NCBI GenBank assembly: GCA_020344415.1
Contig: CP070825.1
Coordinates: 1,604,533-1,624,426, forward strand
Direction of reading: 5' to 3'
From: Candidatus Aminicenantes bacterium
Lineage (GTDB): Bacteria; Acidobacteriota; Aminicenantia; Aminicenantales; Aminicenantaceae
Length of the DNA: 19,894 bases
Shown: one piece after another, positions 3,866 through 16,190 of the stretch
Layout of the letters: each line of letters begins with the position of its first letter
Position numbering within the stretch: the stretch's first letter is position 1
Translations under genes and position numbers: made by a program
The notes under the pieces: model-generated
What the model was told of the DNA's origin: nothing
What the model saw: only the letters and a program-made list of their open reading frames with translations
Databases searched by the model: none

Positions 3866-4055
3866 TTCTTGCCTCCTCTTTTCTTAGAAATATTGGTGTA
3901 TTATAAAAAATCAGAAGTTTTATGTAAAGATAGGCACTATAAAAATCTTAACAGCGATGAATCGGTCGCTTCGGTCTCTTTCCGCTATTGCCGTCTGGCT
4001 CAGCTTCCGAAGCTTAAAAATTCAGCTCTGTTTTTCAGCTTTACAAATTTCTTGC

Positions 4056-7000
4056 TTAGTCTTTTTTTATCTTCTTAGGTGGAAAAATGCGGGGAATATT
4101 GTTCTCGTTCATCAGTTTATTCAGTTTTGGAATATCCGCTTCTATTATCCTGTTTGCTCTCTCAATGAGTGTTTCTAATTCCTCAGAATTTTTGCTTATC
4201 TGTTGAATCTGGCGTTCAGAAGGAGCACCTGTAAATCCTCCAATGGACCTTCCGAGCGTGGACAACTGCCCTCTGATTGAAAAGCGCATTCCTCGCCTGC
4301 CCAATTGCGGATCGCCTAACAACTTGATCCGGATGTCATCAATTTCCTTGGATATAGCCTTAATATGCTCTATAACAGCCTCTGGCACGCCTGATACCTT
4401 TTTTAGAGCTGTATTCTGTTTCTGCATTTCATTTTTAATATTATTTGTGGTCCTGCTCAAAGCTAAAAGAGACGGATTCAACTTATAAATCTTCAAAAGC
4501 GCATCATGCTGTGCTTTCCTCTCTTCAAAGGAAATTTCGATCCTCTTGTCTCCTTCTACCTCAACTGTTTTTGTCATTTCTTGGCCCGCAGCTTTCAGGG
4601 TGACCTGGTATTTTCCGGGGAGAACAAATGGACCTCGGGAGCTGAAGCGTCGATCCGCCTCCCTAGTCACGGGAGGAGGACCATACCTAAGGTTCCAAGC
4701 AATCCGATTGATTCCTTTGTTTTTTGAACCTTTGACTTCCCTTATCATCTGACCAGCGCTATCCTGAACGATTATCTCGACACTATCCTTTGCCTGTTCT
4801 TTCAGATAGTAGCTTATCATGGCACCAAAAGGCGGGTTAGGAGCTACAAAAAATTTGTGACCAAGATTTCCCTTGCGGTTGTAAGGATTAAACATTATCG
4901 CTTTACGGATGTCGAAAAGATAGGCGGGAGAAGCAAGGTTTTCTTTGGTAAGCTGTTCCAAAGGAGTAATATCGTCTAAAATCCAGATGCTCCGGCCATG
5001 GGTACCGAAAATCAAGTCGTTCTCTCGAGGATGGATAGCAATGTCATCAACAGGAACGAGAGGAAAATTTCCTTTAAACTTTATCCAACTTATTCCCCTA
5101 TCAGTCGAGAAGTAGGCGCCTCTTTCAGTACCAATAAAGAGGAGATTGGGATTTCGATGATGCTCGCGGATAACGTTCACAATACTGCCTTTAGGCAGGT
5201 CCCTTGAGATGTCCTTCCAGCTCTCTCCGTAATTGGTTGTCGTGAAGACATAGGCTTTATAATCATCGTTTCTGTGTCCATCCAAAGTCGCATAAGCTGT
5301 CCCTTCCCCAAAGCGTGAAGCAACGACTCTGGTAACATAGGTGTTTTTGGGCACCCCAGGAATCTTGCTTATGACATTTTTCCAAGTTTTGCCGCCATCT
5401 CGAGAAACCTGAAGGTTGCCGTCATCCGTGCCTGCGTACAGAAGGCCTTCCTTGATTGGGGATTCAGAAATTGTAGTGATATCCCCAAAGTAAGAGATTC
5501 CGTCGTGACGGGAGAGGGTCCTCCTATCTGGAAGGACCCCCATGAGGGGGAGCTTTTCTCTATCCTGCTGAGTAGTAAGGTCTATCGAAGCTTCCCATGT
5601 CTCCCCTCTGTCTTTGGATTTAAAAAGTTTGTTTCCACCGTAATAAATAGTGTTGTGATCATGAGGGGAAATCAAAATCGGAGAATTCCAGTTGAATCTG
5701 TAGCTCTCTTTCTCATCCTCTGGCTGAGGCCTGATAGATTTGCTCTCTCCTGTCCTCAAGTCAAGCCTGAAGAGATTCCCATTCTGAGACTCTGCATAGA
5801 TTGTATTATAGTCTGTGGGATCAACCTGGGTATAAAAGCCATCTCCACCGCCGATTCTGAACCAATCTTCGTTTGTAACCCCCAATCGATTCCATGTCGA
5901 AGTCGGACTTCCCCAGCTCCCGTTATCCTGCAGGCCTCCATAAATATAGTATGGGGTGCGCATGTCAAAGCCTATCTCATAAAACTGTCCAAGGGGAAGA
6001 GTGTTAATAAAATCCCAAGTTTTGCCGCGATCGTAAGAAAAATAAATTCCTCCATCCGAGCCAAGAACAATGTTATTGGAGTTTTCAGGATTTATCCACA
6101 TGGCATGATGGTCGCCATGAACCCCTCTCACATAACTTGTATTAAAAGTTTTTCCTCCGTCTTCTGAGACATACATCCGGGCTCCCAGGACCCATATCCT
6201 CTGGTCGTTGTTCGGGTCTATTCGTATCTTGCTGTAATACATAGGGCGAGGATTCGTACTCGACATCTTTTTCCAGGATAAACCCTTGTCCTCAGACCGG
6301 AAGACGCCTCCCCGTCTGTTCTCGATAACTGCATAGACTATACTGGGGTTGCTTCTGAATATATCGATCCCGATGCGACCTGTATCCCCTGCAGGCAACC
6401 CGCTGGTCAGGCGAATCCAGGTCTCCCCTCCATCGGTTGTCTTAAAGAGGCCGCTTCCAGGCCCTCCTCCGTTAAAGCCCCAGCCTCGCCTTCTCCTTTG
6501 ATAAGCTGCCGCATACAGAGTATTTGGATTCTCATGATCCATGGCAACATCCACAAAGCCCGTGTTTTCGTCGATGAACTTCGTATTGACCCACGTCTTG
6601 CCGCCATCTGCTGTTTTAAAAAGGCCTCTTTCCTTGTTCGGACCCCAGAGATGGCCCAAGGCTGCCACATAGACTATGTCCGGGTTTGCGGGATGAATGA
6701 CTAGGCGACCGATATGATGCGTATCTTTTAGTCCCATATTCTTCCACGTCTTCCCTCCATCTGTCGATTTATAGACACCGTTCCCCCATGAAGAACTCTG
6801 GCGATTGTTGGGCTCTCCAGTGCCAACCCATACTATATCAGGATCTGAGGGCGAGACAGTCACATCTCCTATAGTGCTTGTCGGTTGATCATCAAAAATC
6901 GGTTCCCAGGTCACACCGTTGTTGGTCGTCTTCCACACTCCTCCTGAAGCAGTTCCTGCATAGATAATATGTGGCGAACTCTCCACAACAGCAAAGTCAT

Positions 7001-7178
7001 CGATCCGTCCTCCCATGTTTGCAGGACCAATACACCGCCATTTAAGACCATCGAGTACAGCTTCTGTAAGAAGTGGCACAGGTTTCTTCTCTGCCTTTTT
7101 GGCACCGAGGAAGATGCAGAGAACGAAACCAATGCACAAAACAAGTAAAACACGATGCGAAAAGTCTCTTTTTCTCAC
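4056..7178 (-). CDS. BNR/Asp-box repeat protein (sortilin/VPS10-like, GH74/Ycf48-like beta-propeller), N-terminal membrane anchor
   Basis: 1040-aa ORF with at least 10 S/T-x-D-G-G-x-T-W Asp-box motifs (STDGGKTWKN, TADGGKTWVN, TTDGGETWIR, SEDKGLSWKK, SYDRGKTWDF, SKDRGETWEA, SRDGGKTWKN, TTNYGESWKD, STDRGISWIK). N-terminal signal anchor MRKRDFSHRVLLVLCIGFVLCIFLG. The plus-strand antisense ORFs inside it are spurious. Confidence 0.85.
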   Translation of the reverse strand: MRKRDFSHRVLLVLCIGFVLCIFLGAKKAEKKPVPLLTEAVLDGLKWRCIGPANMGGRIDDFAVVESSPHIIYAGTASGGVWKTTNNGVTWEPIFDDQPTSTIGDVTVSPSDPDIVWVGTGEPNNRQSSSWGNGVYKSTDGGKTWKNMGLKDTHHIGRLVIHPANPDIVYVAALGHLWGPNKERGLFKTADGGKTWVNTKFIDENTGFVDVAMDHENPNTLYAAAYQRRRRGWGFNGGGPGSGLFKTTDGGETWIRLTSGLPAGDTGRIGIDIFRSNPSIVYAVIENRRGGVFRSEDKGLSWKKMSSTNPRPMYYSKIRIDPNNDQRIWVLGARMYVSEDGGKTFNTSYVRGVHGDHHAMWINPENSNNIVLGSDGGIYFSYDRGKTWDFINTLPLGQFYEIGFDMRTPYYIYGGLQDNGSWGSPTSTWNRLGVTNEDWFRIGGGDGFYTQVDPTDYNTIYAESQNGNLFRLDLRTGESKSIRPQPEDEKESYRFNWNSPILISPHDHNTIYYGGNKLFKSKDRGETWEASIDLTTQQDREKLPLMGVLPDRRTLSRHDGISYFGDITTISESPIKEGLLYAGTDDGNLQVSRDGGKTWKNVISKIPGVPKNTYVTRVVASRFGEGTAYATLDGHRNDDYKAYVFTTTNYGESWKDISRDLPKGSIVNVIREHHRNPNLLFIGTERGAYFSTDRGISWIKFKGNFPLVPVDDIAIHPRENDLIFGTHGRSIWILDDITPLEQLTKENLASPAYLFDIRKAIMFNPYNRKGNLGHKFFVAPNPPFGAMISYYLKEQAKDSVEIIVQDSAGQMIREVKGSKNKGINRIAWNLRYGPPPVTREADRRFSSRGPFVLPGKYQVTLKAAGQEMTKTVEVEGDKRIEISFEERKAQHDALLKIYKLNPSLLALSRTTNNIKNEMQKQNTALKKVSGVPEAVIEHIKAISKEIDDIRIKLLGDPQLGRRGMRFSIRGQLSTLGRSIGGFTGAPSERQIQQISKNSEELETLIERANRIIEADIPKLNKLMNENNIPRIFPPKKIKKD

Positions 7179-7309
7179 AGTTTTCCCTCCTTAACTAATT
7201 AGGTGGCTGAGTATCTTGATGAAATACTCATTATTTGATTCTTGAAATTGTAGTGAAAAAAGGTAGCTGTATAATTATCACACGGAGCACGTTAAAGTCA
7301 ATTTCTTTA

Positions 7310-7467
7310 TTGGGGTCAGGCTTTCATAACTTTGATAAGTTCTGTGGTCAGTCAATATCCAAGGAAAAGCTGGATAACTGGTGAGAGAAAAATTTCTCTA
7401 CGCCGATGAGGCCTGACTTTGAACACCTAAAACTAAACTTATGAAACTTATGAAAGCCTGACCCCAA
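7310..7467. repeat. 158-bp element bounded by perfect 20-bp inverted repeats (TTGGGGTCAGGCTTTCATAA / TTATGAAAGCCTGACCCCAA); MITE-like or large regulatory palindrome
   Basis: Arms are at 7310-7329 and 7448-7467 and are exact reverse complements; the spacer is 118 bp. The right arm is preceded by a tandem 9-bp duplication ACTTATGAA x2 (7437-7454). An internal partial arm copy GCCTGAC lies at 7411-7417. The element sits in the 331-bp divergent intergenic region between the BNR gene and lpxK. Confidence 0.6.
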
Positions 7468-7509
7468 GCGGGTTGAAAGAGAAAATCGAATGGTGTATAG
7501 TCCCAGAGG

Positions 7510-8490
7510 ATGAAATTTCTTCTCTTTTCCCTTTCTCTTTTTTATCGCATTGGGTGCCAGGCAAAAAATTTATTTTACAGGAGGAAAATCCTCAGGTCAA
7601 AGAGAGCCCCATTGACTGTAATCAGTATTGGAAACATCTCCTTTGGGGGAACAGAGAAAACCCCCTTAGTCATGAACCTGATGTCTTTCCTTACGACGCA
7701 AGGTTTTAAACCAGCCTTAATCTCTCGAGGGTATAAAGGGAAATGGGAAAAAAAAGGAGGTGTTCTCTCTGACGGGATTAGCCTATTCGGAACTTGGGTT
7801 GATTCAGGTGATGAGCCCTTCATGGTTGCTCAAAATATTCCTCAGGCCGGTGTTTTTATCGGAAAAAACCGCTTAAAATCATGCATTCATGCCAAGGATC
7901 TATCATTCGCGCCTGCTGTCTTGGATGACGGTTTTCAGCATCGCCGCCTTCACAGAGACCTGGATATTGTGCTCTTTGATCCCTCTAAAAAGCCGGCTCT
8001 CAGAGAGCCAGTTTCTTCCCTTAAAAGAGCCCACATCCTGTTGATAAAAAAAGGAGCCTCCACTCAGAAAAAGAAGGAAATTAAAAATATTATTTCCCAA
8101 ACAGCCGCGTTCGAATATGATGTTATCCATGGGGCTTTCTTTAATTTGGAAGGGAAAGAGAGAATTCCAGAAGAAGAACTCAAAGAAAAAAAAGTTCTTG
8201 CATTCTGCGGTATAGCCCGCCCAGAAAAATTCTCCGCTATGCTTCAAGAGAAAGGCCTAAAGATTGTTTCTTTCCTTAAATTTCCTGACCACCATTCTTA
8301 CCGCCCCTCTTCTCTAGAAAAAATTGTGGAAAAATACCAAAAAACAAAAGCTGAGGCATTGATCACAACAGAAAAGGACGCAGTGAAGATTTCAGATTTC
8401 GAAGGTTTCAAAAAAATTCCAGCGTATTACTTAAAGATCGACATCAGGCTCGAAGAAGAATTTTATAATAAAATTCTCTCTTTCTTATGA
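7510..8490 (+). CDS. lpxK: tetraacyldisaccharide 4'-kinase (lipid A biosynthesis)
   Basis: N-terminal hydrophobic anchor followed by the P-loop ISIGNISFGGTEKTP (LpxK signature VGNLTxGGTGKTP), then ISRGYKG and DDGFQH motifs characteristic of LpxK. Length 326 aa. Confidence 0.85.
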   Translation: MKFLLFSLSLFYRIGCQAKNLFYRRKILRSKRAPLTVISIGNISFGGTEKTPLVMNLMSFLTTQGFKPALISRGYKGKWEKKGGVLSDGISLFGTWVDSGDEPFMVAQNIPQAGVFIGKNRLKSCIHAKDLSFAPAVLDDGFQHRRLHRDLDIVLFDPSKKPALREPVSSLKRAHILLIKKGASTQKKKEIKNIISQTAAFEYDVIHGAFFNLEGKERIPEEELKEKKVLAFCGIARPEKFSAMLQEKGLKIVSFLKFPDHHSYRPSSLEKIVEKYQKTKAEALITTEKDAVKISDFEGFKKIPAYYLKIDIRLEEEFYNKILSFL

Positions 8491-11108: not shown

Positions 11109-11123
11109 GAAAAAAATATCCTA

Positions 11124-11150
11124 GATTATTCACGAGTCGAGGTTGCCGCA
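11124..11150 (+). promoter_or_regulatory. left half of the bipartite conserved 5' module (copy 1): GATTATTCACGAGTCGAGGTTGCCGCA
   Basis: 26/27 identical to 16122-16148. It is separated from its right half (11465-11492) by the GC-rich insert, whereas the halves are only 14 bp apart in copy 2. Confidence 0.55.
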
Positions 11151-11360
11151 GAGTTCGTTGCGAAGAGCGAAGAGATGTCGCAATCCTCTGTTGCGAGTGA
11201 AGCGAAGCAATCTCATGCTTATAGCGAGATATCATGAGGTCACCACGCTTCGCTCGTGACAGAGGATCGCCACGCTCACTTCGTTCGCTCGTGATGACGT
11301 AGCCGTCCACCGCGAATGAGCCGCAACGAAGCAGATGCGGTGAGATCGGCTCGCCGTAAG
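11151..11360. repeat. GC-rich cluster of short palindromic repeats (REP/MITE-like or structured ncRNA) splitting the conserved module
   Basis: Local GC content is far above the window average. Direct and inverted copies of a GTTGCGA(A/G)..GCGAAG / CTTCGC..TCGCAAC unit occur at 11157-11174, 11190-11208, 11242-11257, 11271-11296 and 11321-11332. A terminal 9-bp inverted pair is TTCGTTGCG (11154-11162) with CGCAACGAA (11322-11330). Internal stems: TTGCGA/TCGCAA (11158-11163 / 11178-11183), AGCGAAGC/GCTTCGCT (11201-11208 / 11247-11254), CTCATG/CATGAG (11212-11217 / 11233-11238). The minus-strand ORFs here (11086..11310, 11276..11473) look like artefacts of the repeats. Confidence 0.55.
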
Positions 11361-11418
11361 GGAAAAATGTCGATAAATATAAATAGCTTCTTTTCTAAAA
11401 AATATTTATCATAATTTG

Positions 11419-11451
11419 CAGCAATATCAGAATATACTCCTGATATTGCTG
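11419..11451. promoter_or_regulatory. perfect 12-bp inverted repeat hairpin/palindrome CAGCAATATCAG-(9 nt)-CTGATATTGCTG immediately upstream of the GT2 gene
   Basis: The arms are exact reverse complements (11419-11430 and 11440-11451) with loop AATATACTC. It is not followed directly by a T-tract, so it is more likely an operator or RNA stem than an intrinsic terminator. Confidence 0.5.
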
Positions 11452-11464
11452 TAATTGAAGAACG

Positions 11465-11492
11465 TATCGGCATTTTTTATGAATAACTTAGG
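11465..11492 (+). promoter_or_regulatory. right half of the bipartite conserved 5' module (copy 1): TATCGGCATTTTTTATGAATAACTTAGG
   Basis: Matches 16163-16190 (TACCGGCATTTTTTATGAATAATTCAGG) at about 25/28 positions. It contains a TATGAAT -10-like hexamer and ends in AGG, 13 nt before the GT2 ATG (12 nt in copy 2). Its TGAATAA(T/C) is the inverted complement of ATTATTCA in the left half. Confidence 0.55.
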
Positions 11493-16094: not shown

Positions 16095-16121
16095 TAATGC
16101 TATGTAATGTTAATATTCATG

Positions 16122-16190
16122 GATTATTCACGAGTCGAGGTTGCTGCATTATCTACAGAAAGTACCGGCATTTTTTATGAATAATTCAGG
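16122..16190 (+). promoter_or_regulatory. compact copy 2 of the bipartite conserved 5' module (left 16122-16148, 14-bp spacer, right 16163-16190) upstream of the PEPCK-like gene
   Basis: GATTATTCACGAGTCGAGGTTGCTGCA ... TACCGGCATTTTTTATGAATAATTCAGG. It has the same two halves, in the same order and orientation, as copy 1, with the same 12-13 nt distance from the terminal AGG to the ATG. Confidence 0.55.

Follow-up and report, generated by a model that had tools for sequence, protein, structure and literature searches.

A 158-bp inverted-repeat element lies between a divergently transcribed Sortilin/BNR-repeat gene and lpxK in a 19,894-nt stretch of DNA from a Candidatus Aminicenantes bacterium (GCA_020344415.1, contig CP070825.1). 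The whole stretch is called the window here, and positions refer to it unless a comparison locus, designated by an L number, is named. The element is probably a non-coding dimer, or nested cluster, of the terminal-inverted-repeat arms characteristic of the TIRYT/TIRtron class. Judged from its sequence, TIRYT is a RAYT-like tyrosine transposase of the IS200-type Y1 (HUH) group and appears to carry a C-terminal helix-turn-helix (HTH) like domain IV of DnaA. The arms are those of this class, they are associated with its transposase in relatives, they are dispersed and lack target-site duplications, and the locus is polymorphic. At lpxK the element is most likely a neutral passenger.

In 2013, Di Nocera, De Gregorio & Rocco (PMC3733652) gave the name "TIRYT" to RAYT-like genes that have long terminal inverted repeats on either side, and the name "TIRtrons" to the units that these form. 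The accessible text of that paper describes 26 such genes from complete genomes, Acidobacteria included, whose flanking repeats share the motif GGGGWSAS and make up families of moderate abundance, as singles, dimers and groups. Most TIRYTs correspond to TnpA_REP subclass 2.1, which is RAYT group 1 of Bertels et al. 2017 (PMC5581495), according to the accessible portions of Quentin et al. 2018 (PMC6006769). The same portions give an HUH motif, a class 2 Y-motif (YxxxNP) and a C-terminal HTH (Bac_DnaA_C, HTH_23 or HTH_28) as TIRYT features, and describe the C-terminal Bac_DnaA_C/HTH domains while leaving their bound target open. In the literature searched, the term TIRYT was found only in PMC3733652 and PMC6006769, and a search for the motif string returned irrelevant matches only.

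Architecture and folding of the element

The element and its parts are as follows.

7310-7467, no strand: whole element, an inverted pair (probable dimer) of TIRYT-type arms around a non-coding 94-nt interior (from sequence, fold and the corresponding sites in relatives)
7310-7341, plus strand: left arm, 32 nt, TTGGGGTCAGGCTTTCATAACTTTGATAAGTT (inverted-repeat search)
7436-7467, minus strand: right arm, 32 nt, reading TTGGGGTCAGGCTTTCATAAGTTTCATAAGTT on the minus strand (inverted-repeat search)
7312-7320, plus strand: conserved tip of the left arm, GGGGTCAGG, fitting the motif GGGGWSAS given in the accessible text of PMC3733652 and PMC6006769
7457-7465, minus strand: conserved tip of the right arm, CCTGACCCC on the plus strand; the TGA within it is the transposase stop codon in full-length units
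7321-7338, plus strand: two tandem 9-mers adjoining the left tip, CTTTCATAA (7321-7329) and CTTTGATAA (7330-7338) (read from the sequence)
7435-7455, minus strand: tandem 9-mers adjoining the right tip, including two copies of AAACTTATG at 7435-7452 (repeat search)
7343-7353, plus strand: degenerate inner left arm, TGTGGTCAGTC (read from the sequence)
7410-7421, minus strand: degenerate inner right arm, GGCCTGACTTTG on the plus strand (read from the sequence)
Arm string of the window's subfamily: GGGGTCAGGCTTTCATAA
Tandem 9-mer unit of the window's arms: CTTTCATAACTTTGATAA

The 20-nt sequence TTGGGGTCAGGCTTTCATAA occurs at 7310-7329 on the plus strand and as its exact reverse complement at 7448-7467, so the perfect 20-bp terminal inverted repeats of the original prediction are real. 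These are the only two matches in the window at up to three mismatches, and two such matches were obtained in none of 200 dinucleotide shuffles of the window. The inverted repeat is longer than was claimed, running on with two mismatches to 32 nt (94% complementary, 94 nt between the arms), and this pair is the longest inverted repeat of the entire 19.9-kb window. Both arms begin GGGGTCAG (7312-7319 and the complement of 7458-7465), which matches GGGGWSAS, and the window element therefore fits a dimer of TIRYT-type repeats.

A 9-bp tandem duplication had been noted at the right arm; it is present there as the doubled AAACTTATG, and the 9-nt periodicity is common to both arms rather than peculiar to the right one. 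The partial internal arm copy that had also been noted is GGCCTGACTTTG, and it has a degenerate left partner at 7343-7353. Inner and outer arms together make a nested ++-- cluster, that is, a pair of arm pairs, and degenerate inner arms of like kind occur in L174 and L148. The flanks beyond the 20-nt repeat differ (TTCTTTA versus GCGGGTT), and no 5-bp target duplication is present at the element (TTATT on the left versus AAGCG on the right).

Folding of the element as RNA, proposed earlier as a check in both orientations, gave -69.8 kcal/mol for the plus strand (z = -7.5) and -65.7 kcal/mol for the minus strand (z = -7.3) relative to shuffles. As single-stranded DNA it folds at -36.3 kcal/mol (z = -8.7), and none of 200 shuffles was as stable. 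Lone arms fold no better than shuffled sequence (-2.3 and -1.5 kcal/mol, equalled by 13 and 30 of 200 shuffles, respectively), which rules out a single arm as a REP-like (repetitive extragenic palindromic) hairpin; the folding unit is the dimer. The whole window had no match in Rfam 15 at gathering thresholds, and a permissive scan of 7150-7560 (E up to 10) yielded nothing but plant miRNA hairpin models of a generic kind, which reached 32.7 bits where the cutoff is 83. Searches for tRNA and tmRNA found none, and no intrinsic-terminator-like site was found in 7000-7700.

A dispersed arm family with a constant tip

One genome per species (596 Gb) was scanned with the two-tip pattern TGGGGTCAGGY-N(108-138)-RCCTGACCCC. 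At least 120 genome loci matched, against about 34 expected by chance by our own arithmetic for 596 Gb. Among the matches listed were Acidobacteriota (including four Aminicenantes metagenome-assembled genomes), Proteobacteria, Planctomycetota, Verrucomicrobiota, Chlamydiota, Elusimicrobia and other phyla, and the cultured Proteobacteria Massilia, Pseudoduganella, Luteimonas and Alishewanella. In 72 of 118 of these loci the arms were complementary at 10 or more of the 12 positions past the pattern, indicating that most matches are true palindromic elements. The 9-mer tip was always convergent, with one to five plus copies followed by one to five minus copies, often at a regular spacing of 19-31 nt, and nested ++-- clusters were common. 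Regular nested arrays, with up to five direct copies at 19-31 nt followed by a similar number of inverted ones, were seen in other phyla (L110 3027-3317; L086 4520-4778; L072 15-150; L105 2725-2943). The same pattern had no match in the viral contigs scanned, which ruled out a phage origin.

Past the tip the arm sequence differs by lineage, and the tip itself is constant across phyla. Tandem 7-9-mers adjoining the tip (at least 85% identity) were present in 22% of arms compared to 1.2% of shuffled arms. An arm thus consists of the cross-phylum tip GGGGTCAGG, two lineage-specific tandem 7-9-mers and a variable inner part.

A metagenome scan with the window arm TGGGGTCAGGCTTTSATAA found at least 120 contigs that carry this arm type. 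The arms occur as singles, dimers and regular arrays. Among the metagenome matches listed, the sizes of plus/minus pairs form a continuous range of 79 to 527 nt, beyond which the next sizes are 1022-1102 nt. The unit shared among copies is the arm alone, about 30-39 nt, and the 158-bp element as a whole is not repeated; its 94-nt interior is essentially unique, the only likeness being 72% to L148 and L174, neither of which is an lpxK locus.

Target-site duplications, which had been proposed as a check, were found neither at the window element nor in 102 isolated dimers (k = 2-5, offsets 0-2). One marginal cell in 36 settings (4 observed versus 0.5 expected) was treated as noise. The absence of duplications is as expected for Y1 transposition. 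Flank enrichment was weak (in the genome set A was favoured at -3 and -2 and T at -1, in the metagenome set C-A-T-T) and was partly forced by the search patterns and partly due to outward extension of the palindrome, and no insertion target consensus could be defined from it.

The partner transposase

The open reading frames (ORFs) of the genome loci were clustered all-against-all. One ORF family, matching Pfam Y1_Tnp (IS200-like), lay next to arms in six of the loci listed, and it was the only gene family enriched beside them. The best NCBIfam match of these TIRYTs was REP_Tyr_transpos, the REP-associated tyrosine transposase model (70.7-80 bits, cutoff 80), and transpos_IS200 scored 22.7 bits against a cutoff of 55. 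A C-terminal HTH was present in some family members from the genome loci. In L006 perfect inverted 27-nt arms flank the TIRYT gene, and a 140-nt mini element at a distance of 2.5 kb bears identical ones.

The 1022-1102-nt units of the metagenome set contain a Y1_Tnp plus Bac_DnaA_C ORF between inverted arms of the window's own subfamily (L146, L161, L191/L192 and L219). The units in L127 and L200 are cut by the contig end, and L152 holds a 496-nt deletion derivative that keeps part of the ORF. Over about 27-32 nt, the arms in L146, L161, L191/L192, L219 and L251 depart from those of the window by no more than 1-2 nt: those of L161 differ at 2 nt in 32, and those of L251 differ from the window's left arm at 1 nt over the first 27 nt after TT. 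The HUH histidines and the YxxxNP tyrosine were kept in 12 of 12 aligned TIRYTs, NHxH and YxxxN being invariant and the P nearly so. In a sequence search of the PDB, the C-terminus of the L161 protein matched the DnaA domain IV structures 2HCB and 1L8Q, and its Y1 core matched no solved structure at E = 0.01. A side observation concerns the Pseudoduganella lurida TIRYT (L023 4443-5210), in which Phe replaces the nearly invariant Tyr of the GRY motif and the YxxxNP tyrosine is retained.

TIRYT has more than 3,000 homologues. Among the matches listed, the closest named homologues of the L161 protein belong to Aminicenantes, Aminicenantaceae and Aminicenantales. TIRYT lies between tatA and lepA in two Aminicenantes genomes (L250, 3901-4985; L251, 9915-11003), and the right flank reads into lepA in L161 (203-1304) and L152. 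L251 is the Aminicenantaceae genome GCA_041862375.1, where GGGGTCAGGCTTTCATAACTTGGATAA flanks TIRYT and solo arms identical to these are found at distances of 2.7 and 8.6 kb. The lepA ATG starts 2 nt past the right tip in L251, L161 and L152. The TIRYT stop codon is the TGA within the tip CCTGACCCC, and the last 5-8 transposase codons are therefore encoded by the arm.

The lpxK locus and its promoters

The element was said to lie in the divergent BNR-protein/lpxK promoter region, and that placement holds: it sits inside a 331-nt spacer between the Sortilin/BNR-repeat gene (4056-7178, minus strand; 1040 residues) and lpxK (7510-8490, plus strand). Downstream of lpxK follow genes for a lipid A acyltransferase, then RNase PH, then an epimerase. 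Homologues of LpxK assign the window to Aminicenantes, and an exact look-up of the window's LpxK protein gave no record. Two promoter-like sites flank the element.

7274-7301, minus strand: promoter-like site of the BNR/Sortilin gene, TTGACT, 16-nt spacer, GATAAT, with TG; outside the element (consensus scan)
7473-7501, plus strand: promoter-like site of lpxK, TTGAAA, 17-nt spacer, TATAGT; outside the element (consensus scan)

The -35 box of the BNR gene (7301-7296, reading leftward) is separated from the left arm by 8 nt, and that of lpxK (7473-7478, reading rightward) begins 5 nt past the right arm. The BNR-gene promoter-like sequence was kept in all relatives examined, and the lpxK site was invariant in seven of seven aligned loci. 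The predicted -35 boxes thus stand back to back with the element between them, so that it is upstream of each predicted start site, and the insertion widens the gap between these boxes from 10-24 nt to 171 nt with both promoters intact.

Since the element is upstream of both predicted promoters, transcription from them should not cross it, and matches to the promoter consensus suggest that it probably remains untranscribed. For the same reason, the strong bidirectional RNA structure that had been proposed between the promoters is unlikely. A perfect TATAAT at 7270-7275 on the plus strand could read through the element; its best -35 box matches at 3 of 6 positions, and the promoter scan did not call it. 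A regulatory role through a cruciform, or through a weak upstream promoter at this TATAAT, may exist. No evidence of such a role was seen at the locus, given empty sites with the same promoters in relatives, an unconserved interior and no expected transcription from either promoter.

With regard to lpxK itself, the -10 box TATAGT (7496-7501) stops 8 nt short of the ATG at 7510, so that its mRNA would be leaderless or nearly leaderless. The stretch GGTGTATAGTCCC…GATG (7496-7512) is kept in all relatives examined.

Empty, filled and swapped states of the site in relatives

The spacers of lpxK loci in relatives, with LpxK identity from 99% down to 63%, were aligned. In the window the element is flanked by AGTCAA... 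on the left and ...TTGAAAGAG on the right.

L001 (metagenome SRR14739666; LpxK identity 99%): same element with three substitutions; the contig stops precisely at the left tip
L246 (85%): empty site, AGTCAA-TGGTTTTGGG-TTGAAAG
L004/L005 (79%): empty site plus 14 extra bases
L002, L003 and L247 (83%, 80% and 75%): dimer in the same place with the same tips, other arms (GGGGTCAGGTCTTGTTTTTTGC...) and an unrelated interior
L248 and L249 (67% and 63%): single degenerate arms just upstream of the lpxK -35 box

Two arm subfamilies therefore occur at the one site, the CTTTCATAA type in the window and L001 and the GGGGTCAGGTCTTGTTTTTTGC type in L002, L003 and L247. Without its insert, L002 equals the L246 empty site exactly, save for a 3-nt GGG ambiguity. 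The left junction AGTCAATTTCTTTATT|GGGGTCAGG is identical in the window (7296-7320) and L247 despite their different arm subfamilies and interiors, which suggests that one element may have replaced another exactly at the tip. The three states indicate that the element is dispensable, polymorphic and replaceable, and that the site was occupied repeatedly. Whether relatives lack the element had been raised as a check, and they do, in L246 and L004/L005. A single-copy element conserved in distant relatives, the outcome that was to point to a regulatory palindrome, is not what was found.

Three short-read (Logan) contigs, L001, L003 and L248, stop at or within about 20 nt of arms or relics upstream of lpxK. 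These ends are consistent with assembly breaks at a dispersed repeat of about 31 nt.

Proposed mechanism

By analogy with IS200/IS605 and TnpA_REP (e.g. PMC8266576), the two arms would pair into a hairpin when the DNA is single-stranded, such as in the lagging-strand template. A TIRYT, working as its homologues do, would use its HUH/Tyr active site to cleave and rejoin the DNA at the conserved tip, and the element would be excised and inserted in trans without a target duplication. At lpxK it would have landed in the 10-24-nt spacer between the back-to-back promoters, leaving both intact.

Several points weigh against a TIRYT-mobilized dimer. The copies have only their arms in common and the interior is unique, so that movement of the 158 bp as one unit would have to be deduced. 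The arms are not self-complementary, unlike the REP hairpins that underlie the biochemical model, and cleavage at the tip and recognition of a single-strand hairpin are attributed to TIRYT by analogy. In the literature searched, no biochemical test of any TIRYT was found. No TIRYT gene lies within the 19.9-kb window, and the cognate transposase and arm copy number of the window's genome would be such as its relatives suggest. Insertion polymorphism is the sole evidence that would speak for mobility as such.

We also raise, tentatively, the possibility that the arms are bipartite recognition sites, with the tip GGGGTCAGG serving HUH cutting and joining and the 7-9-mers bound by the DnaA-domain-IV-like HTH. 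On the complementary strand, the 9-mers of this lineage read TTATCAAAG / TTATGAAAG, which are loosely DnaA-box-like. If excision and insertion took place precisely at the tip, subfamilies could replace each other at one site, and nested or tandem arrays could build up likewise.

Alternative explanations

The original prediction compared the element to miniature inverted-repeat transposable elements (MITEs) and small foldback elements. The part that stands is that of a non-autonomous, inverted-repeat element with dispersed arms at a polymorphic site; the part that fails is membership among classical MITEs, which are internally deleted DDE-type insertion sequences moved by cut-and-paste with target duplications. 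Size (about 160 bp), terminal inverted repeats of 20-32 nt, lack of coding sequence and an intergenic position would all suit a classical MITE, as would the GGGG tip, which we take to be a superficial likeness to Tn3 ends. That origin is nevertheless extremely improbable: no target duplication accompanies this dimer or the 102 others, the enriched neighbour of the arms at the loci listed is the Y1/HUH transposase and not a DDE enzyme, and just the arms recur among copies. A different reading, that the arms are sites selected by the host for protein binding or structure, as proposed for some REPs, and spread by recombination, draws on the resemblance of the tandem 7-9-mers to protein-binding sites and on the occurrence of singles, dimers and regular arrays. 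We regard it as very improbable, as the transposase gene is flanked by the same arms in each lineage examined and the 9-nt tip stays constant across phyla while the remainder co-varies with lineage, a pattern that fits an enzyme inherited horizontally and vertically better than many host factors.

The location exactly between two -35 boxes, a very stable stem, and arms or relics upstream of the lpxK -35 box even at 63-67% LpxK identity (L248 and L249) would be explained by a palindrome co-opted in cis, as a cruciform, protein-binding site or RNA hairpin, to regulate the divergent BNR-gene and lpxK promoters. This is unlikely in view of the clean empty sites with intact promoters in two lineages (L246 and L004/L005) and the other arm subfamily and unrelated interior in three relatives; the element is moreover upstream of both predicted starts and has no Rfam match. 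Quite unlikely, too, is a relic formed in situ, in which a full-length TIRtron at this site lost its gene by internal deletion and the dimer never moved as a small unit. Pair sizes that run continuously from 79 to 527 nt and then reach 1022-1102 nt fit deletion derivatives, and the 496-nt unit of L152 retains part of the ORF. The right arm reads ...MKLMKA-TGA, resembling the C-terminus of the L161 protein, but both arms encode these codons because the codons lie in the arm itself, which counts against a relic. No likeness of the window interior to any TIRtron could be detected in DNA or protein, and in the Aminicenantes loci examined TIRYT adjoins lepA (in a tatA-lepA setting where both flanks could be read) and not lpxK. 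A dimer of TIRYT-type arms remains our preferred explanation.

Comparison with known repeat systems

With TIRtrons and TIRYT repeats the element shares GGGGWSAS at the outer arm tip, arms that flank a RAYT-like Y1 transposase with a Bac_DnaA_C HTH (in relatives, not in the window), dispersal as singles, dimers and groups, and arms that are not REP-type palindromes. The accessible text on the published set does not mention an Aminicenantes member. Nor does it mention the exact 9-mer GGGGTCAGG across phyla, the adjoining tandem 7-9-mers, the stop codon in the tip or the tatA-TIRYT-lepA synteny.

In REPIN-RAYT systems (Bertels & Rainey 2011, PMC3116915), and likewise in the E. coli REP/BIME repeats with their TnpA_REP (Corneloup et al. 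2021, PMC8266576), two inverted repeats form a long hairpin. There, too, the repeats are non-autonomous, their partner is an HUH Y1 transposase which is resident and vertically inherited and which they also flank, and target-site duplications are lacking. GTAG-tagged REPs and REPINs go with RAYT groups 2 and 3; each REP is a short stem-loop palindrome with a conserved GTAG at one end, and the REPIN doublet, with a conserved spacer, is the unit that replicates. The window element differs in that it has no GTAG tag, its tip being GGGGTCAGG; its arms are not palindromic singly and its interior is not conserved between copies; and TIRYT is another transposase subclass with an extra HTH domain. The hairpin doublet typical of REPINs is present, with an interior unshared apart from the 72% likeness to L148 and L174. 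From enzyme homology, IS200/IS605 and their miniature derivatives (PATEs) would share the HUH/Tyr chemistry, single-strand substrates and lack of target duplication. IS200/IS605 ends, however, are sub-terminal hairpins of another sort and not terminal inverted repeats.

Classical bacterial MITEs (Correia/NEMIS, ERIC, RUP, Nezha) and Tn3-derived TIMEs resemble the element in size, terminal inverted repeats, intergenic site and strong foldback, but those duplicate their targets, derive from DDE transposons and repeat as a whole unit, and the window element does none of these. Tn3-derived TIMEs have inverted repeats of about 38 bp (GGGG...TAAG) and a 5-bp target duplication. A Tn3-derived TIME was ruled out, as the arms measure 27-32 nt, the element lacks a 5-bp duplication and the dimer set gave no k = 5 signal.

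Significance

The element adds an Aminicenantes example to a class known since 2013 from 26 examples and hardly followed up in the literature searched, and does not define a new class. The locus offers a natural example, in an uncultivated lineage, of one site in empty, filled and swapped states, with a resident transposase at a conserved position (tatA-TIRYT-lepA). The arms are easily synthesised for cleavage and binding assays, and as the tip is common to many phyla, results should transfer to other lineages. For annotation, the palindrome at the lpxK promoter is explained as a passenger and not a regulator, and the dispersed arms are a plausible reason for short-read contig ends at this spot; knowledge of lipid A gene regulation is unchanged.

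Leads for specialists are the bipartite arm architecture, the cross-phylum tip and the swapping of subfamilies at one site. If the bipartite reading were true, the tatA-TIRYT-lepA system of Aminicenantes would amount to a vertically inherited replicator, similar to REPIN/RAYT, outside Proteobacteria, and it would answer the question of the DnaA-like domain's target that the accessible portions of Quentin et al. 2018 (PMC6006769) leave open.

A second repeat family

The window also holds a second dispersed repeat, which had no match in Rfam. A 74-nt copy (16117-16190) and a 374-nt copy (11119-11492) have both ends in common (…GATTATTCACGAGTCGAGGTTGC… and …CGGCATTTTTTATGAATAA…), and the termini of the family are the short inverted GATTATTCA / TGAATAAT. 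Further copies, or fragments of the ends, lie in L002 (3392-3576), in L246 at the orthologous position (6547-6794), in the genome locus L088 and in about 10 metagenome contigs that bear GGGGTCAGG arms as well. L002, at 83% LpxK identity, is without the 3.1-kb BNR/Sortilin gene and has 644 nt instead (L002 3357-4000 versus window 3866-7509). This 644-nt stretch contains the copy of the second repeat family together with an arm cluster, so that repeats border a difference in gene content.

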